Translations under genes and position numbers: made by a program
The notes under the pieces: model-generated
Told to the model about the DNA's origin: nothing
Database searches by the model: none
The model's input: the letters and a program-made list of their open reading frames with translations, nothing else
In this document: positions 4,199 through 28,249 of the stretch, piece by piece
How the letters are laid out: each line of letters begins with the position of its first letter
Numbering within the stretch: the first letter of the stretch is position 1
From: an uncultured archaeon
GTDB lineage: Archaea > Asgardarchaeota > Thorarchaeia > Thorarchaeales > Thorarchaeaceae
Assembly: GCA_964354495.1 (NCBI GenBank)
Contig: CAYHAA010000010.1
Coordinates: forward strand, 60,001-92,000
Reading direction: 5' to 3'
Length of the DNA stretch: 32,000 nucleotides

Positions 4199-4249
4199 AA
4201 GGCTCTACTTATTAGCTTCAGGCAATATTGTCAGCTAAGAGGTCATTCG

Positions 4250-6081: not shown

Positions 6082-7251
6082 CTACTTTGGGAAGAACTCC
6101 TTGAACACTTCACGCTGAATGAGGAATCGAAGAATCTCGGCTGTTCCACCGCCGATCGTCATCAGACGCGCGTCTCTCATGAAGCGTTCAACAGGATAGT
6201 CAGTCGTGTAGCCCATACCACCTAGAATTTGGAGCGCATCATTAGTGACTTGAACAGCAGCCTCGGTTGTATAGAGCTTTGCAATTGAGGCAGCCTTAGT
6301 AATCTTCTGACCCCGGTCGTACATCCTTGCAGCTGTGAGCGTGAGAGCACGGCCTGCCTCCAGTTTCATTGCCATGTCTGCGATCTTGAAACTTACTCCC
6401 TCAAACTCATTGATAGGCCGGCCAAATTGGTGGCGCTCAGTTGAGTACTTGACAGCAATCTCATAGGGTGTTCTGCCATAGCCAATAGCCTCTCCGGCAA
6501 TCGCAGTCCTCTCAGAGTCCAGCTCGTCCATCAGAATATGGAATCCCTGACCAGGTTCCCCGAGTATCATATTACCTGGAACTCGAACATCCTCTAGTTT
6601 CAACCACGAAACCCGAGCAGACTTCATTCCGAGCAAGTCATGGTCTTTGACAACGGTGAATCCCTCACTCTTGGTGTCGACGATGAAAGCAGACATGCCA
6701 TCCTTAGCCTTCACAGCGGGGTCAGTGATAGCAAACGCACACATGTAGTCGGCTTGGCTTCCATTTGTGATGAAGCGCTTTTCGCCATTGAGGATCCAGC
6801 CATCACCGTCCCTCTTCGCTCGGGTCTTCATTCCTGCAGTATCAGACCCCACATCAGGTTCAGTGATACCAATGCATCCAATCTTATCTCCTGCAACAAC
6901 AGGCCTGAGATACTTCCTCTTCTGTTCAGGCGTTCCAAACCTTTCCACAGGCATGCCATAGAGAGTTGTAGAGGCCATGCGTGCCATGTCCAGGCCGGCA
7001 TTTGTGGCTGAGATCTCTTCAGCAACGATAATCTCATACGACAGGCCACGTTTTGTCCCACCTACTGATTTGTCATGGTGTACTCCCATGTAACCCGCCT
7101 TGCCAATTTTCCTCAGCAGTTCCCTTGGATAGGGGCCCTTGTCAATCTCATCCGCAATAGGAGCAATCTCCCTATCACAGAAAGCGCGGACTTCTCTCCG
7201 AAACTCGACCTCATCATCGGTCCAAAGTGCATTCGATAGGTGCTCAACCAT
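6082..7251 (-). CDS. Acyl-CoA dehydrogenase, IVD/LCAD-type catalytic Glu placement
   Basis: IGITEPDVGSD, WILNGEKRFITNG, ERHQFGRPI, ALQILGGMGY, RDARLMTIGGGTAEI. The ORF track starts at GTG 7284; ATG at 7251 is the likelier start. Confidence 0.93.
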   Translation of the reverse strand: MVEHLSNALWTDDEVEFRREVRAFCDREIAPIADEIDKGPYPRELLRKIGKAGYMGVHHDKSVGGTKRGLSYEIIVAEEISATNAGLDMARMASTTLYGMPVERFGTPEQKRKYLRPVVAGDKIGCIGITEPDVGSDTAGMKTRAKRDGDGWILNGEKRFITNGSQADYMCAFAITDPAVKAKDGMSAFIVDTKSEGFTVVKDHDLLGMKSARVSWLKLEDVRVPGNMILGEPGQGFHILMDELDSERTAIAGEAIGYGRTPYEIAVKYSTERHQFGRPINEFEGVSFKIADMAMKLEAGRALTLTAARMYDRGQKITKAASIAKLYTTEAAVQVTNDALQILGGMGYTTDYPVERFMRDARLMTIGGGTAEILRFLIQREVFKEFFPK

Positions 7252-7321
7252 TCCTGAAACCCGTGCCTTCTGCCGAGAACTCACTTAAATCACTAACTGG
7301 AAGCGCCGATCAGCATGTCAA

Positions 7322-7645
7322 TCATGAGAGTAGCCTGAAACGAAGTAGATTCGATCTGTCAGGAGCGACTTCGACAGGATCTCCAATCTCAGGCTTTGAA
7401 TCATCTTTGCTGCCAGCTAAGCATAATACGACTGCGCCTTGGTCCAGCTCCACCAGAGCCATCGTCAACGGGGGAGTGAATCCTTCGGGAGGCATCTCTA
7501 GAGTTGTGTGGCTGAGAATGGTGCCCTCGCCGTTGATCTTCTGTTTGACCATCTCTCCTGCGGCCTTTCCGCAATATGGACAGATGTCACGTGGCGGAAC
7601 GATTGTTCGAGAACAGCGCTTGCAATGAGAGGCTTGAATCTTCAT
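7322..7645 (-). CDS. DUF35 family Zn-ribbon/OB-fold protein (thiolase partner)
   Basis: CKRC...PPRDICPYC Zn ribbon followed by GTILSHT...ALVELDQG OB-fold pattern; 107 aa. Confidence 0.88.
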   Translation of the reverse strand: MKIQASHCKRCSRTIVPPRDICPYCGKAAGEMVKQKINGEGTILSHTTLEMPPEGFTPPLTMALVELDQGAVVLCLAGSKDDSKPEIGDPVEVAPDRSNLLRFRLLS

Positions 7646-7723: not shown

Positions 7724-10700
7724 TCATTCAGGTTCCATAAATGATTCTAGGAGGCTAATCAGTTCCTTCTTCGAGAGACGTTTCAGTTCGTCAGGGCTGA
7801 CAGTAGCTTTGAAATCTGAAGGAAGAAGCTCGACTAGTGTCTTCTTGTCCAGTTTTGATAGCTCCTTAATGCCGAGTGGAACATCTGAAACGCCAGCTTC
7901 CGCAGAGCGGGTTATTGGTTCAGGAAGCAGCTCCTTGGAAGGAGTATATGAGTCAAGAAGTGACTGAGCCTCCTTTCGAGACATCTTTTCGAGATCCTCT
8001 TTGGCTATAGCATCTCGAATCTCAGGAGGTAGTCTATCCAGGATTTCCTGCTTAGTCAGTGGTTTCTCCACTTCTATCGCAGGCATTGATTCAGGTAATG
8101 TCGTAGTCGCGGGAGCTGTTAATGCCTCAATGGTCTCCATCTCAACGTCTTCTGCCAACAGAGGTTCTTTCCTGACAGGTTCGGTCGGTTGGACCTCCTC
8201 AGCAACATGCAGCTCATCAGCAGACGTGCTAGTTGTCTCTATTTCCTCGATAGTCGGGGCCTCAGCCGCCCGGGGTACTTCAAGAGGTTCATGCACCTCT
8301 GAAACAGGGAGTTCGGCAGGCGGATAAGTGTCTGGCTCAGGTTCAGCTGGTTCAGTGCTAGTTTCTTCAATATGTGAATCAGCAGGAGCAGTGGCCGTTT
8401 CATCATATATTCCGAAGTCGGAGGGCTCAATATCGGTGATTCCTGCGCTGACTGCACCGTGTCTTCTGCGGGAAGCAATGAGTGCAACACCAATCAAACC
8501 GACACCCACACCGCCGCCAATCAGTAGGAGGGTCATCGTATCTGGGGCAAATCCCGGAACAGCAACCCATTCAATCTCTACGCTCAAATTGGCTGAATCG
8601 AGAGCGGAGATTCCATACAGGCTGTCTGATATGCTCTCAACAGAGAAAGTGTAGTTGCCTGCAGTGTTCCTAGTGACGCTAACGCTCCAATAGGCACCTG
8701 CTGAGTTGTATGTCATTGCATTGGTTGCACCAGTCAGAGATACCGAGCCACTAGTAAACGGACTCTCATCAAACTCGTATACGAGAGTGACTCGTATCTC
8801 TGTTGCAACTCCGACATCTTGGGAGAATGACGTCGCAGTGATTGAGGTCACCTGAACTCTGTCCCAGATGATCACCAGATCAGCAGCTGATTGTACGTAA
8901 CTGCTGATTTCACCAAGTGATGCAGAGATGATGCTGAATGAATAACTTCCTACGGTACTCTGAGTGACTGATGCCACATAGACACCACTGGATGGGATAC
9001 AAGTGATGTCGCCTGTCATCACGGCCACAACACCATTTGGTACGGTTACACCTGCGTTCTCAAGTCTTGCACTCCATTGGACCAAAGCCGTATCACCCAT
9101 ACCCAATCTGCTATGGTCAACAGATACTGAGTAGAATTCAATTCGGTCCCAATAGACAGTGACTTCATTCGAATCCATATTGAATTCAGTTATACCGTAG
9201 AGTGCGGCATTGCAGAGAGTAAGAAGGTCAAACGATACAGCTTGGTAGGTAGCCTCGGTGACATAGGTTTCCCATAGGCCGGACCCGACATGAGTCAGTG
9301 CATGACCTTCAATCGCAAATGTGCCGGAAGTGACAGACAACGCATCGTACTCATACTGTAGACCGACTATGACTCTCACATTGTCGCCGGGGTCATGGTA
9401 CAGCTCGTCAGCTGTGATTGAAGTGACTAGTACTCGGTCCCAAATGCAGTAGACAACATCATTGGAGAGGATGGCGGTGATTCCGAATGAATCATCCGCT
9501 GCAGAGAGGACAGTGTAGCCTTGTATCTGCGGCGTAGCGTACGAGAAGTAAGTGTTGTTCAGCGCGAGAGCTCCATCAAATGTAGCACCATCATATGCAT
9601 AGATGGCGCTCACGTAGATCCCCGTTGCGTTGGCTCCAACGTTGACTCGCATATCAGTCGGATTGGTCATGGTGATGATCAGAGCATCCCAGATTGCCTG
9701 CACATCAGTTGTAGAATCAGACCATTCTGTCAGCCCATGTATTGACTCTACAACTGAAACAACAGTGAATCCTGCAGATATCGGAACAGATGAGGTCTCC
9801 TGCCATCGCCAGTACGAGCCACCGGCGTTCCAGATCAAGGTCCTTGATCCATTGAGCTGGATCAGCAATCCACTCTGAATCTCAGTTCCGTTGTATTCGT
9901 ATCGTGCTCTCCACCATACTTCACAGTAGGAATTGATGTTGATTCGCAAGTCGACGACTCCAGCCAGATAGATCTCAATCCTGTCAGTGATGAAGGTGTC
10001 AGTGGGGCTGGTCGAGAAGTACAAGTCAGTACTCCCTGAGCCAGCACCCTCAGCCACAGTCTTGATGGTGTAGGTGTTCAACCTGATGGAGGCAGAGGAT
10101 CCAATGCTGGAGATACTGAAACTGCCAGCAGCCAGGTCACCATTCCAACTGCCTGCAACATCATGGATAATCCAGACATCAGTCTCATTTGCGAGAGGGC
10201 TAAGACTGGAGCCATAGTATGTGATGGACCCGGACACGACAAGGTCGGTGGTATTCACATCACCATGGTCGTCAGACAATGATGGTGTAACTGAATAATC
10301 AAGACGTGTTTCCACATCCCAGTTCGTCTCGTAGGAGTCTGAATCTGAATCAGTGCCATCGAAGACAGACTGCTCCACATCAGAATCAGCAGTGTGTTCA
10401 TGATCCCAACCTATTTTCAGATACCAGGTGATACTCAGCGTATTCCCAGCTCCGACTGCATCGGACATGCTGCCGATGACTACAACTGCGCCACCCACTT
10501 CGACAGAGAATGTATCGGTCGAATATGTGTATCGCACTCTCCAATATAGAGTAACTCGATCGTCAGAGTAGAGCGATAACTCGACATAGCTAATGTCTGC
10601 AAAGCCATCCGGGTCACTGACAGATGTAATGATGATGTAGTATCGATACCGAGCATATAGGCGGTCCGTATCATCTCCGTTAGTGAGTGTTGGAGCAGAA

Positions 10701-13700
10701 TCATTCATTGGAGGATTGTTGGGTTCAGAGGACCAGGTAACCAGCCAAGCGTTCGTAGAGAATGCTGTTATACTATAGTTCGATTCGAATGAGATACTAC
10801 GCGTTGTGTAGCTGTAGGAGATGTTGTACCCAACATCAACGAAGAGACTGACATTAGCACCAATGAATGAGTGCCACCATGTTGAGTTTCTCTGTACGAC
10901 TATCTGATATGATGTACAGGCGGCGTCATCATAATCAAAGATGACTGTAAGCGAGAAATTAGCTTGGACACCGTTCAAGGGAGTGGAATCATCAACTCCA
11001 ATCGTAATGACAAGCTGATCCCATATGCAATATGTCGCATCATTGGCTGAGATCGCTCTGATTCCATGAGTTCCACCACTTGCTGAGTCCACAGTGTACC
11101 ACTGAATCTGAGCTGTGCCGTAAGTGAACTGAGTGTTGTTAAGAATCAAAACACCGTCGAAAACAGAGCCATCATAGTCATGCACAGCACTAGTAACGAT
11201 ACCTGACGCATTAGTGTTGACATTGATACGTTGATCTGTGGAGTCACTGATGGTTATCGTAAGCGAGTCCCAGATACAATATGTTGCATCATTGGCTGAG
11301 ATCGCTGTGATACCATGAGTTCCACCACTCGCTGATAGGACTGTATACCACTGAATCTGTGCTGTTGAATACGTGAATTGTGTATTATTGAGAGTGAGAG
11401 ATCCATCAAAAGCCGACCCATCATAGTTGTAGACGGCGGCCACTATAATTCCAGAGGCATTTGTATTGATGTCAATGTGCTGGTCAAGTGGTTCTGTGAT
11501 GACTATCCTCAACGAGTCCCAGATACAGTAGGTCACATCGTTGTTGGAGATTGCAGTGATTCCAAAGGCACCACCACTCGCAGAACCCAGTGTGTACCAC
11601 TGGATCTGAGCTGTGCCATATGAGAACTGACTGTTGTTTAAGGTCAGAACACCATCGAAAACAGAGCCATCATAGTCGTAGATGGCGCTCACGATGATTC
11701 CTGTTGCATTCGCATTGATGTTTATTCGTTGGTCCGAAGGGTCTGTCAGTGATACAGTGAGTGAATCCCAGATGCAATAGGTCACATCATTCGCAGATAC
11801 TGCTGTAATCCCGTAGGTTCCTTCACTAACGCCCTGCACAGTGTACCACTGAATCTGAGCTGTGCTATAAGCAAACAGTGTGTTGTTCAGCGTAAGGATT
11901 CCATCGAATTCAGCGCCATCGTAGTCATAGACCGCTGTGATGACAATTCCAGATGCGTTTGTATTGATGTTTATTCGCTGGTCCAAGGGATCTGTAATCG
12001 AAATTGTCAGCGAGTCCCAGATGCAGTAGGTCACATCATTTGTCGAGATTGCTGTAATCCCATGAGTTCCACCTGAGACTGACTGTACTGTGTAAGCCTG
12101 CCTCTGTGAAATGCTGTAGGTAAATTGCGTGTTGTTGAGGGTTAGAGTGCCATCGAACGCAGCTCCATCATAATCGTAGGTTGCAGTCAAAATGATTCCC
12201 GTTGCATTCGCATTGACATTGATTCGCTGATCCAAGGGGGCGGTGAGGACAATAGTCAGTGAGTCCCAGATGCAGTAGGTCACATCATTTGTCGAGATTG
12301 CCGTAATCCCATGAGTCCCACCTGAAACTGATTGCACGGTGTAGCCCTGTTTCTGGGCTATGGCATATGCGAATTGAGTATTATTGAGGGTGAATGTGCC
12401 GTCGAATGCAGCACCATCATAGTCGTATATTACTGTTACCACGACGGCGGATGCATTGCTGCTTATATTGATTCGTTGATCAGTAGGGTCTGTAATGGCG
12501 ATAGTAAGTGAGTCCCAAATACAGTAGGTAACATCATTTGCTGAGATTGCTGTGATTCCATAAGTTCCCCCACTCACACCCTGAACAGTGTACCACTGAA
12601 TCTGAGCAGTAGCATAGACGAATTGCGTGTTGTTGAGTATGAGCATTCCGTCAAACGGTGCAGAGTCATAGTCATGGACTGCAGAAACAACTATTCCTGA
12701 AGCATTCGTATTGATGTTGATGCGCCGGTCCAGAGGGTCAGTAATCGTGATTGTAAGCGAGTCCCAGATGCAATAAGACACATCGTTACTTGAGATAGTA
12801 GTGATGCCATAGACCCCGCCGCTCGCACTCTGGACACTATACCACTGAATTTGAACACTGCTGTAGATGAATAGAGTGTTGTTCAGTGTCAATATACCAT
12901 CGAAAGTAGAGTCGTCATACTCATAGACAGCAGAAACGATTATTCCGGATGCGTTCGTATTGATATTGATACGTTGGTCGATGGGGTCAGTCATTATGAT
13001 TCTCAAAGAGTCCCAGATGCACCAAGTCATGTCGTTGGCCGATATTGCTGTGATTCCATAGGCCCCGCCACTCACGCTCTGAACAGTGTACCACTGGATT
13101 TGAGCAAGGGCATAGCTGAATTGAGTGTTATTGAGGCCGACTGTACCATCGAAGGCAGAACCATCATAGTCGTAGAATGCAGTCACGACTATCCCGGACG
13201 CATTCGTATTGACGTTGATACGCTGGTCAGAAGGATCAGTGACTACAACCGTGAGTGAGTCCCAAATACAATATGCTGCTTCATCAATGGAGACTGCTGT
13301 TATACCGAAGGCGCCACCACTCACTGAGCTCACCCGGTACCATTGAATCTGAGCCGTGGCGTAGCTGAATTGCGTGTTGTTCAGAGAGAGGACTCCATCA
13401 AATGCTGAGCCATCGTAATCATAGATGGCACTGATGACAATGCCAGAGGCGTTGGTGTTGATGTTAATTCGCTGATCTGACGGATCAGTGATTGTGATTG
13501 TGAGCGAGTCCCATATGCAATATGTGACGTCGTTGCTGGAAATCAGTGTAATTCCATAGGTATCACCTGAAGCCGACTGCACAGTGTAACCTTGCCTCTG
13601 AGCTACAGCGTACACGAATTGGGTGCTGTTAATGGTCAACGCACCATCGTACGTGGTGCCATCATAGTCGTATACCGCAGTAACTACAATACCTGACGCA

Positions 13701-16700
13701 TTGGTGTTGATGTTGATTCTTTGGTCAGCAGGATCTGTAATGATTATGGTCAGTGAGTCCCAGATGCAGTAGGTCGCGTCATTCACTGATATTGCAGTGA
13801 TTCCATATGCTCCGCCACTGACACCCTGAACAGTGTACCATTGAATCTGGGCTGCAGCATATGCGAATTGAGTGTTGTTTAGAGCTAGGACACCATCGAA
13901 GGCAGAACCATCATAATCATAAACTGCGGAAACTACGATTCCTGATGCGTTTGCATTGATATTGATTCGCTGATCGCCTGGATCGGTTATGGTTATTGAA
14001 ACAGCGTCCCAGATGCACCATGTCACATCGTTTGCTGAGATTGCAGTAATACCATATGTTCCACCACTTGCAGAGAGAGCAGTATACCACTGAATCTGAG
14101 CGGTGGAGTAGGCAAACTGCGTGTTATTCAAGCCGAGCGTGCCGTCAAACGGTGTGGAATCATAGTCGTAGGTAGCGCCGACTACTATCCCTGATGCATT
14201 CGCACCAATATTGATTCTCTGGTCCAACGGATTAGTGATTGTTACAGTCAGCGAGTCCCAGATACAGAAGGTCATGTCATTTGTCGATATGGCCGATATA
14301 CCGTATGATCCACTGCTTATCGAAGGAATTGTGTAGTACTGTATTTGCGCGGCCATGTAGGTGAATTGAGTATTGTTCAGAGTCAGGATACCGTCGAAGG
14401 CGGAGCCATCATAGTCGTAGATAGCAGAAACGATAATCCCGGATGCATTTGTATTGACATTGATGCGCTGGTCGAATGGGTCAGTGATTGTAATCGTGAC
14501 AGAGTCCCAGATACACCAAGTGACATCGTTTGCCGAGATGGCAGTGATGCCATAGGTTCCGCCACTGGCAGACATGACTGTATACCACTGAATCTGGGCC
14601 GTGGCGTAAGAGAACAGCGTGTTGTTCAGTGTCAGGGTACCGTCAAACGGCGAGGAGTCATAGTTGTAGACTGCAGTAACCACAACTCCTGATGCGTTCG
14701 CGTTGATGTTGATACGCTGATCTGATGGCTCGGTGACTGCTATTGTTAGCGAGTCCCAGATACAATATGTCATGTCATTGGTAGAGATTGCAGTGATGCC
14801 GAACGCTCCGCCACTCACTGAGCCGACTCGATACCATTGAATCTGGGCTGTTCCGTAGCTGAACTGCGTGTTGTTCAATGTGAGAATTCCGTCGAATAAC
14901 GAGCCATCATAGTCATAGACCACGCTCACAACAATGCCTGATGCATTGGCATTGATGTTGATTCGCTGATCCAACGGGTCGGAAACTGATATTGTAAGCG
15001 AGTCCCAGATGCAATACGTAACGTCATTGCTGGAGATCACGGTGATGCCGTATGTACCACCACTAGCAGATAGAACAGTGTACCACTGGATCTGAGCGGC
15101 AGGATAGGAGAACTGCGTGTTGTTGAGTGCGAGCGTTCCATCAAAAGGCGCGGAGTCATAGTTGTAGACTGCTGTGACTACTATTCCCGATGCATTCGTA
15201 TTGATGTTGATGCGTTGGTCGAATGGGTCAGTGATTGTAATTGTCAACGAGTCCCAGATGCAGTATGTTTCGTCGTTGACTCCAATGAGCGACACTCCAT
15301 GGACTCCTCCAGAGGCAGTCGATACTTCATATCCTCTTATTCCAACCGTGCCATAGTTGAAGACCGTATCATTAAGATTCAGAGTTCCATCGAAGCTCGT
15401 GTCGTCGTAGTCATAGATTGCTGATGCAACAATGCCTGTTGCGTTGGCACCTGTGTCAATCCTCTGATCGATCGGATCGGTGAGCGTTATGATTAATCGA
15501 TCGGCAATATAGGTGTCAGTTGCACTGCTCGTATAGAATAAATCAGTGCCTCCTGCACCAGCTCCCTCCTCAACCACCTTGACCGTGTATGTGTCTAGAC
15601 CTACTAGATTGTCAGCGTAGCAAGTGACATTAAAAGCCCCTGAGGTGGGAGTGAGATCGCTCCAAGGCCCAACGTTAGTCCCATATTCTGAGGCAGAAAC
15701 CCAAATATCGACAGCTGTTGAAGAGGGCGCAACATTCACAGAACCGTAGTAGATGACAGTTCCTGTCAGTGAGAATGATCCATCTACATTGCCTCTATCT
15801 GGAGTCCCAGAGCTGTCGCTGACATGTGGCAAAACAGAGTATTCCAGCCTTGTTTCAATGTCCCAGTCAACTTCATACCATGTCGTTGTTGATTCGTTCT
15901 GAGCGTCTTCGACATAGCATCTTGCATCTATGTCAGTAGAATCAGGGAAGTCCCAATCAATTGTGAAGAAGAAGGTGGCATCAATATCATTGCCGCTCTT
16001 GGTTGCCGATGAACTTCCTGTATTCAATGTGACAAAGTTGCCACCATCGAATTGCTCTGAGAACACGCTTGTGTCCTCATCATATCTGAATCTACAGAAC
16101 TCTGTTGCCCGGGTATCGTCCCAAAGCCCAATTTCCAGAAAGTCGATGTCTGCGAATCCGTTCTGGTCGGATACGTAAACACTGACCTGATACTCTGCGT
16201 ATTGAGCGTACATGTTATCAGTATCGGTAGGGTTGTTCAGATAGGGTATCTGATCAATCAGGGGAGTATAGCTTGGGGTCCACGTATGCAATAGGACAGC
16301 ATCAATCTCCCATGTGTCCTGTGTTGTATCTCCTGTTTCAGTTCCGCCAAGAAATCTGACTTCGAACGCCGAACTGGTCAGGTACGAAGAAACACTGACA
16401 TTGTTCCACTGGTCCGGAGTGAGGTCCGCGAGGGCATTGATCCAAGTCCCGCTCCAGACATCAATCTTGATGTCTTCAGTCGGCCAGCCACCCCCTGTGA
16501 CAGGGTAGATGCATAAGTATTCGTAGGTTTCATCGTAGTCTGCAGCAGTCCATCCAACCTCCAAGTCAAGTCCATAGCTCCATGATGAAGGAGTCCAACA
16601 ATGAAGTAAGATACCCTCTATCTGCCAAGAACCCTGATAGGCATCATCGGTCTGCATGCTGTCTACGAATCTGATTTCGAAGGATGACGTAGTGAGATAG

Positions 16701-17773
16701 CTAGTAACCGATACATTATTCCAGCCTGCCTGGACACCGGTGATGACAGTGACCCATGCTGCACCATCCCAGACATCGACATTGAGAGTTTCAGAATTCT
16801 GTATGCCGCCATAGATACATAGCGCTTCATTCGATTCTGAATATTGGGCACTGGTCCAGCCAACCTCGAGGTCCAGCTCGTGGTTCAGATTATTGATATT
16901 CGCATAGAGCCTGCGCCAAGTATATGTGCCGTTAGTTGCATCAGTCGGGTCCGTTGGCGATGCATAGCTATTCGTCGTATCGGACTTACTACTTGCGCCA
17001 GTAGTAGACGTATAGTACAGTCTCATCGAGTTTGAAGCTGGGATTATCAGTATCCAGTATGTATTCCCACTAACTACTATCGGACGTGAGCCAGCTGCAA
17101 AGGTCAATGTCTTATCGCCGGCTGTCGCAGATACGCCGACTGCAGAGCTAACTCCGTTTGGCAAGATGTACCCAGACGAGTTTGTGATGATCCCCTTCGT
17201 GTTTATTGTACCCGTTGAGGACCTTCCGTAAAACACGACGCTGGCAACTTCCCCCGTGCTACTTGCAGTGTAGACACCACCATACATATAGTTCGCGCTT
17301 ACTGAAACATAGCTGGCACCACTGGCGGAACTTCTGCCAAATGTGCTGGTTCCAGTATTTGTATCAGCCTCGGTTAGAGTGTCATAAGAGCCATCGAAGT
17401 CCTGCATTTCAGCAAAAGAAGAGTGTGCACCTATGTCCGTGGGCGCATGAAGGTTGGATGCTTGATCCACGAAGTCTTCATAATTAGTGCCAGCATAGCT
17501 TATGTTTCCCTCGGTCATCTGATCGTAATTAGCACCATAGTCTTGAAGATACGAAAAGACACTATGCGAACCCCTATCACTAGGAGGATGAAGATTTGAG
17601 CTCTGATCAACAATGTCCTCAGCATTATCGCCTATTCCTGATACAGTATAGGAATTTGGCTCAGGAATCCCTCTCAATCCTCTAGGGGGTGATTCAATAT
17701 CCACAATTGGACTAGCCAATATAATACCAAGGAATGTTAGAAATAGGGCAAGTGTGAGGACACGTCTTCCCAT
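7724..17773 (-). CDS. Giant (3349 aa) repeat-rich cell-surface type I membrane protein, putative adhesin/receptor
   Basis: Uninterrupted 10,050-bp ORF. N-terminal basic plus hydrophobic signal (MGRRVLTLALFLTFLGIILAS), S/T/D/N-rich repeated beta modules, a single TM (TLLLIGGGVGVGLIGVALIA, ~8474-8536) followed by SRRRH, and an acidic Pro-rich tail. Confidence 0.93.
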   Translation of the reverse strand: MGRRVLTLALFLTFLGIILASPIVDIESPPRGLRGIPEPNSYTVSGIGDNAEDIVDQSSNLHPPSDRGSHSVFSYLQDYGANYDQMTEGNISYAGTNYEDFVDQASNLHAPTDIGAHSSFAEMQDFDGSYDTLTEADTNTGTSTFGRSSASGASYVSVSANYMYGGVYTASSTGEVASVVFYGRSSTGTINTKGIITNSSGYILPNGVSSAVGVSATAGDKTLTFAAGSRPIVVSGNTYWILIIPASNSMRLYYTSTTGASSKSDTTNSYASPTDPTDATNGTYTWRRLYANINNLNHELDLEVGWTSAQYSESNEALCIYGGIQNSETLNVDVWDGAAWVTVITGVQAGWNNVSVTSYLTTSSFEIRFVDSMQTDDAYQGSWQIEGILLHCWTPSSWSYGLDLEVGWTAADYDETYEYLCIYPVTGGGWPTEDIKIDVWSGTWINALADLTPDQWNNVSVSSYLTSSAFEVRFLGGTETGDTTQDTWEIDAVLLHTWTPSYTPLIDQIPYLNNPTDTDNMYAQYAEYQVSVYVSDQNGFADIDFLEIGLWDDTRATEFCRFRYDEDTSVFSEQFDGGNFVTLNTGSSSATKSGNDIDATFFFTIDWDFPDSTDIDARCYVEDAQNESTTTWYEVDWDIETRLEYSVLPHVSDSSGTPDRGNVDGSFSLTGTVIYYGSVNVAPSSTAVDIWVSASEYGTNVGPWSDLTPTSGAFNVTCYADNLVGLDTYTVKVVEEGAGAGGTDLFYTSSATDTYIADRLIITLTDPIDQRIDTGANATGIVASAIYDYDDTSFDGTLNLNDTVFNYGTVGIRGYEVSTASGGVHGVSLIGVNDETYCIWDSLTITITDPFDQRININTNASGIVVTAVYNYDSAPFDGTLALNNTQFSYPAAQIQWYTVLSASGGTYGITVISSNDVTYCIWDSLTISVSDPLDQRININANASGIVVSVVYDYDGSLFDGILTLNNTQFSYGTAQIQWYRVGSVSGGAFGITAISTNDMTYCIWDSLTIAVTEPSDQRININANASGVVVTAVYNYDSSPFDGTLTLNNTLFSYATAQIQWYTVMSASGGTYGITAISANDVTWCIWDSVTITITDPFDQRINVNTNASGIIVSAIYDYDGSAFDGILTLNNTQFTYMAAQIQYYTIPSISSGSYGISAISTNDMTFCIWDSLTVTITNPLDQRINIGANASGIVVGATYDYDSTPFDGTLGLNNTQFAYSTAQIQWYTALSASGGTYGITAISANDVTWCIWDAVSITITDPGDQRININANASGIVVSAVYDYDGSAFDGVLALNNTQFAYAAAQIQWYTVQGVSGGAYGITAISVNDATYCIWDSLTIIITDPADQRININTNASGIVVTAVYDYDGTTYDGALTINSTQFVYAVAQRQGYTVQSASGDTYGITLISSNDVTYCIWDSLTITITDPSDQRININTNASGIVISAIYDYDGSAFDGVLSLNNTQFSYATAQIQWYRVSSVSGGAFGITAVSIDEAAYCIWDSLTVVVTDPSDQRINVNTNASGIVVTAFYDYDGSAFDGTVGLNNTQFSYALAQIQWYTVQSVSGGAYGITAISANDMTWCIWDSLRIIMTDPIDQRININTNASGIIVSAVYEYDDSTFDGILTLNNTLFIYSSVQIQWYSVQSASGGVYGITTISSNDVSYCIWDSLTITITDPLDRRININTNASGIVVSAVHDYDSAPFDGMLILNNTQFVYATAQIQWYTVQGVSGGTYGITAISANDVTYCIWDSLTIAITDPTDQRINISSNASAVVVTVIYDYDGAAFDGTFTLNNTQFAYAIAQKQGYTVQSVSGGTHGITAISTNDVTYCIWDSLTIVLTAPLDQRINVNANATGIILTATYDYDGAAFDGTLTLNNTQFTYSISQRQAYTVQSVSGGTHGITAISTNDVTYCIWDSLTISITDPLDQRININTNASGIVITAVYDYDGAEFDGILTLNNTLFAYSTAQIQWYTVQGVSEGTYGITAVSANDVTYCIWDSLTVSLTDPSDQRININANATGIIVSAIYDYDGSVFDGVLTLNNSQFSYGTAQIQWYTLGSASGGAFGITAISNNDVTYCIWDSLRIVITEPLDQHIDINTNASGIIVAAVYNYDGSAFDGSLTLNNTQFTYSTAQIQWYTVLSASGGTHGITAISANDATYCIWDSLTITISDSTDQRINVNTNASGIVTSAVHDYDGSVFDGVLILNNTQFTYGTAQIQWYTVDSASGGTHGIRAISANDATYCIWDQLVITIGVDDSTPLNGVQANFSLTVIFDYDDAACTSYQIVVQRNSTWWHSFIGANVSLFVDVGYNISYSYTTRSISFESNYSITAFSTNAWLVTWSSEPNNPPMNDSAPTLTNGDDTDRLYARYRYYIIITSVSDPDGFADISYVELSLYSDDRVTLYWRVRYTYSTDTFSVEVGGAVVVIGSMSDAVGAGNTLSITWYLKIGWDHEHTADSDVEQSVFDGTDSDSDSYETNWDVETRLDYSVTPSLSDDHGDVNTTDLVVSGSITYYGSSLSPLANETDVWIIHDVAGSWNGDLAAGSFSISSIGSSASIRLNTYTIKTVAEGAGSGSTDLYFSTSPTDTFITDRIEIYLAGVVDLRININSYCEVWWRARYEYNGTEIQSGLLIQLNGSRTLIWNAGGSYWRWQETSSVPISAGFTVVSVVESIHGLTEWSDSTTDVQAIWDALIITMTNPTDMRVNVGANATGIYVSAIYAYDGATFDGALALNNTYFSYATPQIQGYTVLSAADDSFGITAILSNDVVYCIWDRVLVTSITADELYHDPGDNVRVIVGLQYEYDALSVTSGTFAIEGHALTHVGSGLWETYVTEATYQAVSFDLLTLCNAALYGITEFNMDSNEVTVYWDRIEFYSVSVDHSRLGMGDTALVQWSARLENAGVTVPNGVVAVMTGDITCIPSSGVYVASVTQSTVGSYSFSIISASLGEISSYVQSAADLVIIWDRVQVTSITATSFSQDVGVATEIRVTLVYEFDESPFTSGSVSLTGATNAMTYNSAGAYWSVSVTRNTAGNYTFSVESISDSLYGISALDSANLSVEIEWVAVPGFAPDTMTLLLIGGGVGVGLIGVALIASRRRHGAVSAGITDIEPSDFGIYDETATAPADSHIEETSTEPAEPEPDTYPPAELPVSEVHEPLEVPRAAEAPTIEEIETTSTSADELHVAEEVQPTEPVRKEPLLAEDVEMETIEALTAPATTTLPESMPAIEVEKPLTKQEILDRLPPEIRDAIAKEDLEKMSRKEAQSLLDSYTPSKELLPEPITRSAEAGVSDVPLGIKELSKLDKKTLVELLPSDFKATVSPDELKRLSKKELISLLESFMEPE
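7739..8062 (-). repeat. Two copies of a ~38-aa helical motif at the cytoplasmic C-terminus of the giant protein
   Basis: LTKQEILDRLPPEIRDAIAKEDLEKMSRKEAQSLLDSY (7946-8059) versus LDKKTLVELLPSDFKATVSPDELKRLSKKELISLLESF (7739-7852). Confidence 0.75.
9446..9694 (-). repeat. Solitary 19th copy of the 83-aa repeat
   Basis: IWDALIITMTNPTDMRVNVGANATG...LSNDVVYC; its IWD and the next IWD are exactly 249 bp apart. Confidence 0.85.
11027..15508 (-). repeat. 18 tandem copies of a 249-bp / 83-aa unit
   Basis: The IWD codons (plus strand GAGTCCCAGAT-like) recur at 15249, 15000, 14751 ... 11265, 11016, always 249 bp apart, and 4482 bp = 18 x 249. Consensus is approximately IWDSLTITITDPxDQRININTNASGIVVSAxYDYDGSAFDGxLTLNNTQFxYATAQIQWYTVxSASGGTYGITAISxNDVTYC. 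Confidence 0.97.
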
Positions 17774-17981: not shown

Positions 17982-17987
17982 AAAAAA
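17982..17987 (-). terminator. Oligo-T tract after the thiolase-like gene (archaeal-type terminator candidate)
   Basis: Minus strand reads CTCGCTCTTTTTTCC about 20 nt after the TAG at 18009. Confidence 0.45.
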
Positions 17988-18008: not shown

Positions 18009-19181
18009 CTAAGGTCGCTGAAGAATAGTCACGACGATATTGTTACCAAACCCACCAATGTTGTGAGTAAGACCAATACCCGGGTTATCTACTTGGAGCC
18101 CTTTGGGAGCCTCTCCTCTCAATTGCGTGACAATGTCGCGTATCTGAGCTACTCCAGTGGCGCCAGTGGGATGACCTCTTGCCTTGATACCACCTGTAGT
18201 GTTGACAGGCATCTCTCCCCAGACCTCCGTTAGACCCTCCTTTACCGCATGAATTGCGCTCCCACGTTCGACTAGACCAATATCCTCCATATTCACAAGT
18301 TCGAGGATGGAGAAAGCATCATGAAGCTCGCACACATCAATCTCTTGAGGACTGATACTAGCCATCTTGAAGGCTTTCTCTGCAGCTACTACTGAAGCAT
18401 CAAAAGAGGTCAGAGCAGATCGATGTTGAACAGCAAGATAGTCGGTTCCATGACCAATACCTAGGACCCGTATTGCTCTATCTGCAAGACCATGTTCTTC
18501 CATCGTGCTTTCGGACGCAACAACAATAGCTGCTGCACCATCGCTCGTAGGGCAACAATCGTACAGGGTAAGAGGGTCTGCAACAACTCTTGCTGTGTTC
18601 ACCTGTTCAATGGTGATCTCCTTTTGAAAGTGAGCCAGGGGGTTCTTCGCTCCATTTCGGTGGGCCTTCACAGGAATGAGAGAGAGTTCGTCCCGCGTCA
18701 GACCATAGTCATGCATGTACCTACGGGCAATCATAGCCGCGAGTGCAATAGGCGTGGCACCGTATCGAGTTTCGTTTTCGTAGGACATCATTTTGGCCAG
18801 AATCCCCGATGCTACCCCTCTGTCGACCTCGGACATCTTCTCCACGCCAACCACAAGAACAAGATTCGCCATGCCTGCGGCGACCAATGCGAAGGCGGAC
18901 TCGAAGGCACTCGACCCTGAGGATGGACCAGTCTCAACTCGAATAGCGCCTGCTGGAACCAATCCAAGGCGGTCCGCCAGTACAGATGAGAGATGTCCCT
19001 GGCCTACGAACTCATCGGGATTCTGGGCACCCACGACAAGACGATCGAATCGTGCCTCGACCGTTGAGGAGTCTTCCATCGCCTCAAAGGCAGCACTCTG
19101 TGCGAGATCTAGTATAGAATCATCGAGCACACCGAACCTTGTCATTCCCGCTCCAACGATATAGACAGGATCCACGATCAT
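18009..19181 (-). CDS. Thiolase-fold protein (archaeal/SCP2-like type) lacking the canonical nucleophilic Cys
   Basis: VYIVGAGMTRFG, AHRNGAKNPLAHFQ, DCCPTSDGAAA, ELHDAF, GGIKARGHPTGATG, THNIGG. The usual VExACASG motif reads VETGPSSG. Confidence 0.9.
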   Translation of the reverse strand: MIVDPVYIVGAGMTRFGVLDDSILDLAQSAAFEAMEDSSTVEARFDRLVVGAQNPDEFVGQGHLSSVLADRLGLVPAGAIRVETGPSSGSSAFESAFALVAAGMANLVLVVGVEKMSEVDRGVASGILAKMMSYENETRYGATPIALAAMIARRYMHDYGLTRDELSLIPVKAHRNGAKNPLAHFQKEITIEQVNTARVVADPLTLYDCCPTSDGAAAIVVASESTMEEHGLADRAIRVLGIGHGTDYLAVQHRSALTSFDASVVAAEKAFKMASISPQEIDVCELHDAFSILELVNMEDIGLVERGSAIHAVKEGLTEVWGEMPVNTTGGIKARGHPTGATGVAQIRDIVTQLRGEAPKGLQVDNPGIGLTHNIGGFGNNIVVTILQRP

Positions 19182-19187
19182 GCTCCC

Positions 19188-19712
19188 TCACACAATGAGA
19201 ACCAGGAGTTCCGTCGGTGTCACCATGGTCCCCACCTTGACATTCACTTCCTTCACGGTGCCGGAGGTATCTGCCTTCAGTTCATTGAACATCTTCATCG
19301 CTTCAAGTATGCAGACTGTCTGACCGCTCTTGACAGTGTCACCCACTTTCACACGGACTTCAGTAATCTTGCCAGGCATGGGGGGATAGATGCCACCAGC
19401 CACTCTTGGGCCTGCCTGGGAGGTGCCAGGAGCCTTTTTCTCAGCTTCTTGCTTTCTGACACGTTCCCACTCAATCTCTCGTTCCTGGCCATTTATCTCA
19501 AGACTCATGGTCTTCCCTGTTCGTTTCACGATTCTCACGGGATAGTCAGTGGTGGTATCATTTACAATCCATGAACCATCATCAGCAAGAGTCGGTTTCA
19601 TTGTGAAACTCTGGTCAGCAACCTTCACAACAAGCAAGCCGCCCTCATCGAGCATCTTAACTTCAACAACGAAAGGCTTCTCATTGAGAGTGACCCTGTA
19701 TTCCGGACTCAT
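19188..19712 (-). CDS. Biotin carboxyl carrier protein with N-terminal extension
   Basis: PPMPGKI...ILEAMKMFNEL biotinylation motif in the C-terminal domain. The start overlaps the pycB stop (TAATG). Confidence 0.92.
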   Translation of the reverse strand: MSPEYRVTLNEKPFVVEVKMLDEGGLLVVKVADQSFTMKPTLADDGSWIVNDTTTDYPVRIVKRTGKTMSLEINGQEREIEWERVRKQEAEKKAPGTSQAGPRVAGGIYPPMPGKITEVRVKVGDTVKSGQTVCILEAMKMFNELKADTSGTVKEVNVKVGTMVTPTELLVLIV

Positions 19713-21298
19713 TATACGCCCTCCTGGCTGCGTCCTCTCATCATATCCTTCCTACCAGCAGAGCCCCATGGTGTCGTGGACTGCTCCCACTTTCCAGCTC
19801 CATATTGCACTGTTCGTGCAGTAACGAGACCACTTCGACCCATGTCTGTCCATGCATCGCCTCGAGTGACTGCTGTTTCCGGCCCGCTTGGAGTAATCCC
19901 ATTCATATGAAGAATGGCCGCAGTGATTGCTACCTCCAATTCAGGTGTCATTTGACCTGCGACTTTTTTCCGAGCACGACGTTTCAAGAAGTCCAGAGCA
20001 TACTGCGGGAATAGGGCATAGGATATTTCATCACGTGGCAGATGTGGTACGTCTTTGAGGGCTTCCCGTGCTGCTGGAAGTTCTGGCTCAAGAAGATCAG
20101 CAGGCCTGCAATCAAGAGGCTTTTCATTGCCAATCGCCATCTCCCTGACTGCAGCATCAATCTCAGCTGGGGGTCTTCCGTAATAACCGCGGATGTACTG
20201 TTTTACCTCAGTTGGAATCGTGCTGTATCTCTTTCCGGTCACAACATTGAGTGTTGCCTGAGTTCCGACAATCTGACTTGATGGTGTCACAAGGGGGGGA
20301 TAACCAAGTTCTGCTCGCACACGCGGGACCTCTGCAAGCACCTCATCGTACTTATCCAATGCACCCTGTTCACGGAGCTGATTGTCAAGGTTAGATAGCA
20401 TCCCTCCAGGAATCTGAAACTCGAGGACCTGTGGATTGACTCCCTGAAGACTGCCCTCGAACTGTGCGTACTTCCTGCGAATTCTACGGAAGTAGTTGGC
20501 AATCTCAGAGAGTTGGGTGATATTGAGACCTGTATCACGAGGAGTACCTTTGAGTGCCTCGACAATAGATTCAGTGGCAGGTTGTGATGTTGCCATTGAC
20601 AGCGCAGATATCGCGCAGTCTACTACGTCCACCCCTGCTTCTGCTGCCTTGACATATGCCATTGCAGCCATCCCACTGGTGTAGTGAGAGTGGAGCTGGA
20701 CAGGAAGGTCTACCTCGTCTTTGATTCCTGCTACTAGGTCATACGCAGCCGTGGGAGAAATGAGTCCTGCCATGTCCTTGATACAGATTGAGTCAGCCTC
20801 CTTTTCATAGAGCTCCTTTGCCATCTGGACAAACTTCTCATTTGTGTGAAAGGGGCTCAGGGTGTAACTGATGGCTGCTTGAACATGACCACCCTCACGC
20901 TTCACGAATCTCATTGCAGCCTCCATATTCCGAACATCATTCAGTGCATCAAAAATCCTGAAGATATCGATTCCAACTCGGACTGCCTCCACAACGAAGG
21001 CTTCCAGAACATCGTCCGCATACATATGATACCCAACGATATTACTTCCCCTCAACAACATCTGAAATGGCGTCTTGGGCATTGTTTCTTTGAGTAGTTC
21101 GACACGCTCCCAAGGGTCCTCGTCAAGAAAACGCATCATAGAGTCGAAGGTAGCCCCACCCCACATCTCAAGCGAATGGTACCCGACTTTATCAATCTTC
21201 TCACATATGGGAAGCATGTCCTCTGTTCGCATTCGCGTAGCAATAAGTGATTGATGTGCGTCTCTCAGTGTCGTATCAGTTATCAGAAGCTTCATCAT
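19712..21298 (-). CDS. pycB: Pyruvate/oxaloacetate carboxyltransferase (PycB / OadA / transcarboxylase 5S-like), with no fused biotinyl domain
   Basis: [60 protein letters not shown]. The symbol indicates the family. Confidence 0.9.
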   Translation of the reverse strand: MMKLLITDTTLRDAHQSLIATRMRTEDMLPICEKIDKVGYHSLEMWGGATFDSMMRFLDEDPWERVELLKETMPKTPFQMLLRGSNIVGYHMYADDVLEAFVVEAVRVGIDIFRIFDALNDVRNMEAAMRFVKREGGHVQAAISYTLSPFHTNEKFVQMAKELYEKEADSICIKDMAGLISPTAAYDLVAGIKDEVDLPVQLHSHYTSGMAAMAYVKAAEAGVDVVDCAISALSMATSQPATESIVEALKGTPRDTGLNITQLSEIANYFRRIRRKYAQFEGSLQGVNPQVLEFQIPGGMLSNLDNQLREQGALDKYDEVLAEVPRVRAELGYPPLVTPSSQIVGTQATLNVVTGKRYSTIPTEVKQYIRGYYGRPPAEIDAAVREMAIGNEKPLDCRPADLLEPELPAAREALKDVPHLPRDEISYALFPQYALDFLKRRARKKVAGQMTPELEVAITAAILHMNGITPSGPETAVTRGDAWTDMGRSGLVTARTVQYGAGKWEQSTTPWGSAGRKDMMRGRSQEGV

Positions 21299-21346: not shown

Positions 21347-21550
21347 GTACTCTCTCTTATTCTTTTGATACACATCTGATTGCCAGCGGCGAACGAGAAA
21401 CTCGAAATTCCCTCCAGATTCGCGGTTTCATACTCGACTGACTCATCGAAGTTCTCTATGCTATCCAGCAAGAGAGGATTATGCCTTATTCTAGTAGGGT
21501 GGATTTACGACGAGTCGGATATTATTCCACGCTTCTGTCAGGTGCAAGTC

Positions 21551-21727
21551 ATGCTTCCAACATGGACCTCTCGGACCTGCCATGTATGTGGTGAGAGAGG
21601 GGTGTGGGCGGAGGGCGTGACCTCAACTGATGAGCGGCGTGGGAGTGATTACTTCCATTGTTCAATGTGCGGTGAGCACTTCCGTGCTGATACGAATGCC
21701 ACACGGAGTGTTATGCATGTTCAATAG
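21551..21727 (+). CDS. Small Zn-ribbon protein (58 aa)
   Basis: MLPTWTSRTCHVCGERG...YFHCSMCGEHF, with CxxC x2. ATG at 21551 follows AGGTG; the 21380 start in the ORF track is probably too long. Confidence 0.65.
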   Translation: MLPTWTSRTCHVCGERGVWAEGVTSTDERRGSDYFHCSMCGEHFRADTNATRSVMHVQ

Positions 21728-21800: not shown

Positions 21801-22388
21801 TTAGGCTCTTCGGCGGTATATTATATAAAGTACTGGTAGAATCACAGCCACAATGGTCACCGAGATTATGATTGAGATTTGAAGCGGAATGTCGGCTGTG
21901 GTGTTTGTTGAGCCCTGCCTGCAGAATGATATTCGATGCAAGCTGGATGTATTCCAGTTGTTGAGGCTATCATTTGCATAGAACATGATATCCCAGATAA
22001 CTAAAGAGTTTGCTCCAATAATCGTGAAATTCAGAGGCCAAGCTACAAAGTCGTCTGGATCACTTGTAAAAGCATCTCGACTCATAGAAACATTGTTCCA
22101 GTTGCTACTCGAATTGTTATTGTAACTTCCAATAACATTACTCACTCCATCGGGGTCTGTTACTCCAACTCTGAGTTCAAGGGTCAAGGTCACAGGTTCG
22201 GTGCTAGGAACAAGATCCATGAACACCCATGGAGTGAGTTTGAACGAAGGACCTGAAGACTGACATACCTGAAACGAGGATGACAGAGATGACTGATTGC
22301 TCACAGCTGCCCCTCCTGCATTTGGCATCAGTGATGTCAGTGCAACTAGAATCAAAACAGCGTATCTAAAAGTCATTATCATCTTCAT
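21801..22388 (-). CDS. Small type I membrane protein with one Ig-like extracellular domain
   Basis: Signal peptide, VTDPDGVSNV...FYANDSLNNWN beta-sandwich-like segment with many sequons, and C-terminal TM IIISVTIVAVILPVLYII followed by YRRRA. Confidence 0.8.
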   Translation of the reverse strand: MKMIMTFRYAVLILVALTSLMPNAGGAAVSNQSSLSSSFQVCQSSGPSFKLTPWVFMDLVPSTEPVTLTLELRVGVTDPDGVSNVIGSYNNNSSSNWNNVSMSRDAFTSDPDDFVAWPLNFTIIGANSLVIWDIMFYANDSLNNWNTSSLHRISFCRQGSTNTTADIPLQISIIISVTIVAVILPVLYIIYRRRA

Positions 22389-22476
22389 GTTTCTCCCTTA
22401 ATGTACGTCCTAAGCTATCTCTACACCTTTCATTATCATTTCTATATACGAGTTCTTTTTTCTTGCCTCCAATTTG

Positions 22477-27652: not shown

Positions 27653-27781
27653 CGTGAGGGAATCAGTGCAGTAGATGTAGACCAAGCAGGGCGACTGGTC
27701 TGCGATGAGGGAAAAGATTCAGCCCAAGTATCAGGTAGAATATGCCAAGATACTATCACAAAACAAGAGTGGACGGTTTCT

Positions 27782-28249
27782 CTATCTCATTGTTCCAGCA
27801 TTCACTGATTTCGACCAGATAATCTCAGGATGAGAATCATCTGTGAATGATTGAAACTTATCATATGTCACAAGATGCATCCTGAGGCTGTCAATGCATG
27901 CTTTCAGTTTGGATTCGCTGTCAGGATGACCTAGACTGAATGAGTTGGGTTCTAGAGGGCGACCATGCTTGAATGCAGTGTAGAAACACGCTTCAATTCC
28001 TTTTGCCCCGAGGCTGTGGGCCCGTTGACCGACAGTCATAATGAGATCGAGATCTTCCTGAGTTTCAATCGCCATATAGTATGCAGGGCGAAGTGGATGC
28101 GATCTGTCGGTGAACTTGACGATGCGAGAACCCTCAGGAAATTCAGCCCCTAAGCAGCTGTTGCATCTCCACTTGCCGCCCTCACTGGACAGGTCATAGA
28201 CATACTGCAGGTTTTCAGTGGATCCACATACACCACATTGATTGGTCAT
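27782..28249 (-). CDS. Hypothetical protein with an N-terminal Zn finger
   Basis: CGVC...WRCNSC in the first 35 aa of a 155-aa ORF. Confidence 0.65.
   Translation of the reverse strand: MTNQCGVCGSTENLQYVYDLSSEGGKWRCNSCLGAEFPEGSRIVKFTDRSHPLRPAYYMAIETQEDLDLIMTVGQRAHSLGAKGIEACFYTAFKHGRPLEPNSFSLGHPDSESKLKACIDSLRMHLVTYDKFQSFTDDSHPEIIWSKSVNAGTMR

Follow-up and report, generated by a model that had tools for sequence, protein, structure and literature searches.

A DUF35-associated thiolase-fold protein lacking both catalytic cysteines, encoded next to transcarboxylase genes in Thorarchaeia

Thiolase-fold enzymes that work together with a DUF35 or OB-fold protein have been described from several organisms, and not all of them possess the nucleophilic cysteine of a thiolase. 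The acetoacetyl-CoA thiolase of M. thermolithotrophicus is part of a complex with 3-hydroxy-3-methylglutaryl-CoA (HMG-CoA) synthase and a DUF35 protein (6ESQ/6ET9), and reviews (PMC7137286 and PMC9049629, citing Hou et al. 2013) describe BktB and PhaA as ketothiolases of two subunits that have a 'Ser-His-His' triad and cannot do without the OB-fold subunit. What defines the steroid side-chain aldolases Ltp2 and Sal is a catalytic Tyr in the motif YDHF/YDCY together with Tyr344 (Ltp2) or Cys304 (Sal), and TbSLP of Trypanosoma, a Cys-less protein resembling SCP2-thiolases, decarboxylates malonyl-CoA weakly (both PMC12329534). Here we describe a 390-aa thiolase-fold protein of the SCP2/archaeal type, Thl*, that is encoded at 18009..19181 on the reverse strand of a 32,000-nucleotide stretch of DNA (hereafter the window, to which all coordinates without a contig name refer) from an uncultured archaeon of the Thorarchaeaceae (assembly GCA_964354495.1, contig CAYHAA010000010.1, positions 60,001 to 92,000). 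We consider it very likely that Thl* belongs to a clade devoid of the nucleophilic Cys, that it is functional and that it is linked to the propionate/methylmalonyl-CoA pathway. As to what it catalyses we are more tentative, and with less than even confidence we favour a DUF35-bound enolate enzyme directed at (methyl)malonyl-CoA, i.e., a decarboxylase or a decarboxylative condensing enzyme.

Loss of the catalytic cysteines

Thl* carries the Pfam domains Thiolase_N and Thiolase_C_1 and is matched by the NCBIfam model PRK06064 ('thiolase domain-containing protein') with 431 bits (cut-off 420). Its AlphaFold 2 (AF2) model (predicted local distance difference test, pLDDT, 97.7) finds its best structural match by Foldseek in 6et9_C, with a template modelling (TM) score of 0.96 and a root-mean-square deviation of 1.4 Å, and the archaeal acetoacetyl-CoA thiolases match at E values of 1e-80 to 1e-88 and a TM score of 0.96. 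The best matches in sequence and structure, the Pyrococcus furiosus thiolase PFC_04095 (7YVY) and the M. thermolithotrophicus enzyme, share the fold of Thl*; the former also has the motif HDAF, and the latter a DUF35 partner. Unlike Thl*, however, these thiolases have the nucleophilic Cys (EAACASG), and Thl* is not encoded next to an HMG-CoA synthase gene. In the HMMER alignments, the Cys of EAACASG in 7yvy (E 1.7e-88) and 6esq (E 1.3e-80) stands opposite Pro86 of Thl* (codon CCA, 18924..18926, reverse strand; AIRVETGP86SSGSSA), in agreement with the earlier note on this DNA, which had read a Pro in place of the catalytic Cys.

The second catalytic Cys is missing as well. HDCF is the usual motif in SCP2-type and archaeal thiolases, its Cys serving as acid/base; codons 287-289 of Thl* (18315..18323, reverse strand) read His-Asp-Ala, i.e., His287 is kept and Ala289 replaces the Cys, a replacement also seen in 23 of 82 Cys-type relatives. 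The C-terminal loop, HNIGGFG, has no Cys either, where type I/II thiolases have CxG. Both catalytic Cys are therefore absent, and the earlier statement that the HDAF and GHP His motifs are retained holds for the two histidines, His287 and His337 (the second oxyanion-hole His, codon 18171..18173, reverse strand), but not for the Cys of the former motif. Beyond the two Cys the thiolase active-site frame is kept (His287, His337, Asn374 and Gly376-Gly377).

In thiolases the nucleophilic Cys also contributes, with its main-chain NH, one half of oxyanion hole 2, where the acyl-enzyme is stabilised. Pro86 thus removes the nucleophile together with the main-chain NH of that hole, and Ala289 removes the usual base, for which reason the ping-pong mechanism through an acyl-Cys is impossible in Thl* and acyl-enzyme formation would be ruled out. 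As far as its residues tell, the 'acyl-enzyme half' of the site is dismantled and the 'enolate half' (His-His) is kept, and His287 and His337 could still stabilise a thioester enolate. The earlier conclusion that Thl* performs no classical thiolysis is upheld by Pro86, which is fixed in the orthologues, and the label 'acetyl-CoA acetyltransferase' is almost certainly wrong for this protein.

One might suspect that such a substitution reflects an error of sequencing, a mutation private to this genome or the decay of a pseudogene, an explanation to which we give practically no credence. The motif G-P-S-[SA] is present in 120 of the 120 closest database homologues (70-95% identity, mostly metagenome-assembled genomes of Thorarchaeota), and Pro in 17 of 17 orthologues and sister copies drawn from genomes of Asgard archaea. 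A survey of 301 genomes of the phylum showed orthologues (at least 62% identity) all across the family to which the window belongs, every open reading frame (ORF) being intact and every orthologue examined having Pro at position 86. In four further Asgard families the copies (42-52% identity) have ENGPASGG or ESGPSSG at this place, again together with HDAF and GHP. The ratio of non-synonymous to synonymous substitution rates (dN/dS), taken over the whole protein against the nearest species representative, is 0.059. The check on the GP motif that the earlier note had called for thus speaks for a fixed residue, and by these measures of conservation Thl* is a functional, strongly constrained protein.

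A comparison of 20 divergent Pro variants shows conservation of at least 95% at 48 positions, nearly all of them shared with Cys thiolases (E114, N180, P203, D214-G215, E285, H287-D288, F290, N327, G330-G331-L332, G336-H337-P338 and G376-G377); His287, Ala289 and His337 are each conserved in 100%. Residues specific to the Cys-free clade lie mostly in active-site loops (G85, P86, A289, L293, R335, F378, N380 and N381; also H184), and Ser87 is replaced by Ala in most sister Pro variants.

An exhaustive profile-free search returned more than 1000 relatives of Thl* at E<1e-30, many of which lack the Cys at position 86 and carry P, S, D, G, N, E or A there. In FastTree phylogenies of 161-165 family members, all 46 Pro sequences fall into one clade in which no member has Cys at position 86; with the alpha subunit of BktB added, this clade comprises 61 leaves (46 P, 13 S, 1 T and 1 G) at a support of 0.988, its motif is HD[AM]F throughout, and its sister groups are Cys thiolases. 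By parsimony, Pro and Ser (or Thr) were exchanged at least five times within it. On this phylogeny Thl* is a member of an old, wholly Cys-free (Pro/Ser) branch of archaeal DUF35-dependent ketothiolases. The finding that the Pro and Ser types form a single Cys-free clade containing BktB is new here, and our literature search found no paper on Pro-type members of this thiolase family.

Two Ser-type proteins allow a closer comparison. BktB-alpha of Haloferax mediterranei (pHM500, 4139-5290; the adjoining 120-aa gene encodes the OB-fold subunit) has the motifs RIDQTSSSG, HDMF and NVGGFGN. It is 38% identical to Thl* and, besides its place in the same clade, shares with it HD[AM]F, GHP, the N-x-G-G-F-G-N loop, a small OB-fold/DUF35 gene nearby (adjacent in the case of BktB-alpha) and a link to propionyl-CoA metabolism; it differs in having Ser at position 86, where Thl* has a non-acylatable Pro, and in being associated with polyhydroxyalkanoate (PHA) genes instead of a transcarboxylase. 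ST0096 of Sulfolobus tokodaii, whose structure is solved (4YZO), also lacks the nucleophilic Cys (NTSGSG, with HDMA) and corresponds to the motif type of P0215 in the same clade, but is of the Ser type, whereas Thl* is of the Pro type; a literature search on ST0096 and on 7YVY found no functional paper. Seven further Ser-type representatives (P0131, P0142, P0145, P0149, P0151, P0152 and P0168; ETASSSGAA, HDAF) are 464-539 aa long, i.e., some 100-150 residues above the usual length, and may be thiolase-DUF35 fusions; relatives longer than 684 aa, sought as fused forms, were only eukaryotic SCP2 proteins. The genome from which the window was taken encodes a second Cys-free thiolase-fold paralogue (G000:C10:33038-34114, reverse strand, ca. 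27 kb before the window start; RIENGGNTGG, HDAF) that is 34% identical to Thl* and is adjoined by a DUF35 gene of its own (C10:32367-32564). The same genome also has two classical thiolases and three of the DUF35 type that bear the Cys; a Cys-bearing paralogue paired with a DUF35 lies at C9:64104-65249.

Given that BktB-alpha nests in the Cys-free clade, Thl* could itself be a BktB-type beta-ketothiolase working by a non-canonical route, forming 3-ketovaleryl-CoA (propionyl-CoA + acetyl-CoA <-> 3-ketovaleryl-CoA) or cleaving 2-methylacetoacetyl-CoA, either through an enolate that, with no acyl-enzyme formed, directly attacks a second, DUF35-held acyl-CoA or through a relocated nucleophile such as Cys209/Cys210. 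BktB is reported to make 3-ketovaleryl-CoA and to require its OB-fold subunit (PMC7137286, PMC9049629). The repeated exchanges of Pro and Ser suggest that the function of the clade does not depend on side chain 86. Such an enzyme would supply propionyl-CoA to the transcarboxylase and, with the acyl-CoA dehydrogenase of the same gene block (both described below), take part in odd-/branched-chain acyl-CoA breakdown; an acyl-CoA dehydrogenase, a thiolase and a transcarboxylase, with methylmalonyl-CoA mutase (MCM) elsewhere, do fit propionyl-CoA production from odd- or branched-chain substrates. Yet Pro86 supplies no nucleophile, nor a main-chain NH for a tetrahedral intermediate, Ser87 is not conserved among the sister Pro variants, and the Cys-bearing and classical thiolases of the genome are available for ordinary thiolase work. 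Nor do we know of a Claisen enzyme that handles two thioesters with no covalent intermediate. Of the 46 Pro variants, 45 have a Cys at position 209 or 210, but being equally common in Cys-type thiolases (85%) it is no clade-specific gain, and it aligns with Ser247 of the Z. ramigera thiolase, a residue in contact with pantetheine; from the alignment a relocated nucleophile appears unlikely. Taken together, we find a ketothiolase of this kind rather doubtful.

A thiolase fold without the nucleophilic Cys, combined with a DUF35 partner, was also the basis on which the earlier note proposed an Ltp2-like aldolase, i.e., a retro-aldolase of the Ltp2/Sal kind that cleaves a 3-hydroxyacyl-CoA, as a potential stand-in for an HMG-CoA-lyase-type step, and retro-aldol chemistry indeed needs no nucleophile. 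Ltp2-ChsH2 and Sal-Shy resemble Thl* in exactly these two respects. However, the catalytic Tyr of YDHF/YDCY is His287 in Thl*, and the third motif residue (the Cys304/His296 position) is Ala289; the GHP His337 is retained, perhaps at the place of Tyr344. Ltp2 (6ok1) is moreover a distant relative (E 6.9e-31, row 13 of the match table; Foldseek rank 42, TM score 0.83), and the loss of Cys in Thl* is phylogenetically independent of that in Ltp2, having occurred inside the archaeal DUF35-dependent ketothiolase family. The DUF35 domain of those systems, which belong to steroid catabolism, is fused to the preceding hydratase of the pathway, whereas that of Thl* is a free-standing protein, and the gene block holds no hydratase gene (MaoC or other). 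The gene context, which is one of biotin transcarboxylase and methylmalonyl-CoA and not of hydratase or isoprenoid genes, speaks against a role of the HMG-CoA-lyase type too, and we regard the retro-aldolase proposal as highly improbable.

The DUF35 partner and the split gene block

The presumed beta subunit of Thl* is a 107-aa DUF35 protein consisting of a zinc ribbon and an OB fold (Pfam zf-ChsH2 and OB_ChsH2_C; 7322..7645, reverse strand), in which the four Zn-binding Cys are kept. A DUF35 gene downstream had been seen in the earlier note and does exist, but it is not adjacent: it lies 10.4 kb from Thl*, beyond the gene of a giant surface protein of 3349 aa (7724..17773, reverse strand) that stands outside the system and is absent from this place in genomes G087 and G236. 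In G087, a genome of the same genus, the 5S carboxyltransferase, biotin carboxyl carrier protein (BCCP), Thl*, DUF35 and acyl-CoA dehydrogenase (ACAD) genes are contiguous; in G236 the DUF35 gene follows Thl* at ca. 0.5 kb, and in the sister clades it is overlapping or adjacent. Other genomes have 3-10 kb of unrelated genes at the junction of Thl* with DUF35 or at that of BCCP with Thl*, the cargo being giant surface proteins or a helix-turn-helix protein with an Arf-like GTPase, and the junction of Thl* with DUF35 carries other inserts in loci L006, L007, L076 and L077. Based on the gene order in G087 and G236 and the varied inserts in relatives, the giant gene was inserted, specifically in this lineage, into a block that ancestrally had five genes. 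The junctions of Thl* appear to be recurrent insertion hot spots (window 7724-17773; L007:11400-21167; L076:5881-11229; L077:100-6216).

The last gene of this ancestral block encodes the ACAD (6082..7284, reverse strand; Pfam ACAD domains), which is syntenic with DUF35 in the relatives and whose best NCBIfam match is acryloyl-CoA reductase AcrC, below the cut-off of that model. A T6 tract, a terminator-like oligo-T, is located 22 nt after the stop codon of Thl* (17982..17987, reverse strand), and judging from the sequence the transcription unit probably ends there in this genome.

The two proteins were also predicted to form a complex. Thl* with the DUF35 protein of the window scored 0.91 against 0.00 for the best control, although, similar complexes having been solved already, this score shows likeness only; among 80 solved complexes, 58 attained the mark used, as against 2 among 110 mismatched pairs. 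The prediction runs agreed in at least 98% of contacts, with a partner pLDDT of at least 90. The partnership with DUF35 that the earlier note had put forward is supported by the adjacency in G087 and by the complex prediction, and the best explanation for Thl* is that it forms a DUF35-dependent complex of the archaeal thiolase family, in which it would be the large (alpha) subunit.

Transcarboxylase and mutase genes around Thl* and its relatives

Immediately upstream of Thl* lie the gene of a stand-alone, 1.3S-type BCCP with the biotinylation motif EAMKM (19188..19712, reverse strand; Pfam Biotin_lipoyl), whose stop codon is 6 nt before the start of Thl*, and that of a 5S-type (PycB/OadA-like) carboxyltransferase without a biotinyl domain (19712..21298, reverse strand; Pfam HMGL-like and PYC_OADA). 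The latter matches NCBIfam PRK09282 with 739.6 bits and is the sole PYC_OADA gene of the genome. The order 5S-BCCP-Thl* is found in 24 of the 28 Thorarchaeota species representatives with enough flanking sequence, and also in all longer loci examined, down to 62% identity. In genus g5 the run 12S-5S-BCCP-Thl* is contiguous, with a gap of 22 nt between 12S and 5S in G046.

The 12S, 5S and 1.3S subunits of transcarboxylase together catalyse methylmalonyl-CoA + pyruvate <-> propionyl-CoA + oxaloacetate. A 12S carboxyltransferase occurs in 53 of the 58 genomes of the family, while a biotin carboxylase was found in none of the 58; the genome of the window (97.7% complete) encodes a full-length, mmdA-like 12S (C4:5123-6688) and a biotin ligase, and biotin carboxylase and OadB were not found in it. 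Given the presence of 12S and the failure to find biotin carboxylase, the two genes upstream of Thl* can be assigned to a methylmalonyl-CoA:pyruvate transcarboxylase as its 5S and 1.3S subunits. A pyruvate carboxylase was rejected on the family-wide result for biotin carboxylase, and a Na+-pumping oxaloacetate decarboxylase on that result and the missing OadB. The likeness to the propionibacterial enzyme (12S/5S/1.3S) thus extends to all three subunits, two of them upstream of Thl* and the third elsewhere in the genome, and we know of no thiolase-fold or DUF35 subunit described for a methylmalonyl-CoA:pyruvate transcarboxylase. The transcarboxylase pathway in Asgard archaea was already inferred by Imachi et al. 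2020 (PMC7015854); new here are the contiguous runs 12S-5S-BCCP-Thl* and 5S-BCCP-Thl*-DUF35-ACAD and the family-wide absence of biotin carboxylase.

Further genes of this pathway are present in the genome, i.e., two MCM large subunits, one of which, on contig 4, has a canonical methylmalonyl-CoA epimerase (MCEE; 168 bits, above the cut-off) beside it. Two other roles were considered for Thl* in this context. The epimerase acts between mutase and transcarboxylase, and the idea that Thl* replaces it is weakened by the canonical MCEE next to MCM; the idea that Thl* substitutes for 12S is weakened by the frequency of 12S in the family and by its contiguity with 5S-BCCP-Thl* in genus g5. Partial 12S ORFs (349, 203, 130 and 86 aa) stand in a row at G000:C10:102394-110013 and C4:6-539, 23-31 kb from Thl* and on the same strand; they may be fragmented paralogues or decayed copies, and similar series of 12S fragments occur in G103, G200, G266 and G301.

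Outside the family of the window, MCM itself recurs near relatives of Thl*. In family f7 a classical thiolase, Thl* (GPAS), DUF35 and the MCM large subunit form an operon; in f18 MCM lies within 1.4 kb and a classical thiolase within 4.5 kb of Thl*; and in f16 Ser-type copies have an adjacent DUF35 and an MCM 4-5 kb away. Family f19 encodes, 5.4 kb from a Pro-type Thl*, a 697-aa fusion of DUF35 with MCM (L056:465-2558; G038:C1, reverse strand), with zf-ChsH2 at residues 21-45, OB_ChsH2_C at 53-107 and the MCM large subunit at 177-690. A distant Pro-type member, P0320 (L082:3392-8361, GCA_964396185.1), has a 12S carboxyltransferase and a biotin protein ligase as neighbours; an overlapping 78-aa ORF after it is perhaps a shortened DUF35. 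This repeated association of Thl* relatives with MCM, the DUF35::MCM fusion included, is new here. In the Ltp2 and Sal systems an enzyme-fused DUF35 recruits the thiolase-fold partner (PMC12329534), and by analogy Thl* of f19 is probably docked physically to the mutase through the fusion.

The same fusion, by which a thiolase-fold partner would be recruited physically to the mutase, also suits the reading that the Thl* dimer with DUF35 is a non-catalytic, CoA-ester-binding scaffold or channel that tethers mutase, transcarboxylase and ACAD. Both catalytic Cys are gone, DUF35 proteins are known scaffolds (e.g., in archaeal fatty-acid synthase complexes and in that of thiolase with HMG-CoA synthase), and Thl* shares operons with different enzymes in different lineages, all of which would suit a scaffold. 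What would be unexpected for a pure scaffold is that His287, Asp288, His337, Asn374 and Gly376-Gly377 are conserved as in active thiolases at ca. 40% identity, and the dN/dS of 0.06 holds across the whole protein. A non-catalytic subunit, the alternative already offered in the earlier note, keeps a place among the candidates, albeit an improbable one in our view.

Several other features of the window lie farther upstream. Just upstream of the 5S start is a 115-aa ORF with a Cas12f1-like/TnpB TNB zinc ribbon (21380-21727, forward strand), beside which low-GC ORFs without a family match extend over 21801-24117. At 26189-30777, near the acyl-CoA genes, those for a beta-keto acid cleavage enzyme (BKACE) and for two aminotransferases (class III and class I/II) form a cluster that could represent an amino-acid or beta-keto-acid fermentation module.

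A candidate enolate chemistry

We tentatively favour the enolate enzyme directed at (methyl)malonyl-CoA because the retained residues fit decarboxylation and because methylmalonyl-CoA is common to all the neighbours. In such a scheme, the DUF35-bound Thl* dimer would bind a 2-carboxyacyl-CoA, (methyl)malonyl-CoA, in the normal acyl-CoA tunnel; the thioester oxygen would be held in the retained oxyanion hole of His287 and His337 with no covalent intermediate; and the enolate would be made by decarboxylation, as in the Cys-less KSQ/CLF ketosynthases. The output would be propionyl- or acetyl-CoA, or a C-C bond formed decarboxylatively, at the methylmalonyl-/propionyl-CoA node. There are precedents. 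KSQ/CLF and Cys-to-Gln ketosynthases decarboxylate with a His-His pair, and by comparison with them the residue set of Thl* would be exactly that needed for the decarboxylation of a 2-carboxyacyl thioester. In the sbm operon of E. coli, MCM is paired with a biotin-independent methylmalonyl-CoA decarboxylase. KSQ/CLF and TbSLP resemble Thl* in that the nucleophile is lost, the oxyanion-hole residues are kept and malonyl thioesters are decarboxylated (by TbSLP weakly); the former differ in having Gln at the nucleophile position and substrates bound to the acyl carrier protein of polyketide synthases, and the latter in its YDCF motif and in having no DUF35. Their homology to Thl* is at the superfamily or SCP2-family level only.

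A number of points weigh against this assignment. The sole characterised member of the clade, the Ser-type BktB/PhaA, is reported to be a condensing ketothiolase and not a decarboxylase (PMC7137286, PMC9049629). The genome already has 12S and a canonical epimerase and leaves no obvious gap for a further methylmalonyl-CoA enzyme, and by simple decarboxylation the carboxyl group would be lost that the transcarboxylase saves. At the nucleophile position, KSQ enzymes have Gln and not Pro. Several distant Pro-type loci have neither carboxylase nor mutase neighbours (P0123, P0126, P0132, P0306, P0138 and P0269 are on short contigs or have uninformative neighbours), and the neighbourhoods of related genomes are not independent observations.

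A bolder version of the same idea would place the whole Cys-free branch, BktB/PhaA included, outside acyl-enzyme chemistry. All its members would work through a His-His enolate, made by decarboxylation of (methyl)malonyl-CoA or by CO2 exchange via the biotin carrier, and DUF35 would hold or channel a second CoA ester and couple the reaction to MCM and the transcarboxylase. We deem so broad a statement unlikely to hold.

Whatever its reaction, Thl* has consequences for annotation. Thousands of database entries for proteins of this kind are labelled acetyl-CoA C-acetyltransferase, in all probability wrongly, and reconstructions of Asgard metabolism that count Thl* as a thiolase, and with it butyrate, fatty-acid or mevalonate capacity, are therefore overcounting. 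Since Ser and Pro have interchanged repeatedly within the clade, the 'Ser-His-His' triad of its haloarchaeal relatives is called into question as well. Thl* can be seen as a natural experiment, a thiolase fold under strong selection in which only the enolate-stabilising half of the site was kept. For the archaeal lineage closest to eukaryotes, its context (transcarboxylase, MCM, the DUF35::MCM fusion, 12S with biotin ligase) indicates that propionate/methylmalonyl-CoA metabolism has a component not yet described. Were the Cys-free branch as a whole to work without an acyl-enzyme, it would add to the thiolase superfamily a new type of reaction that needs no nucleophile, and to the archaeal propionate pathway a subunit not recognised before.

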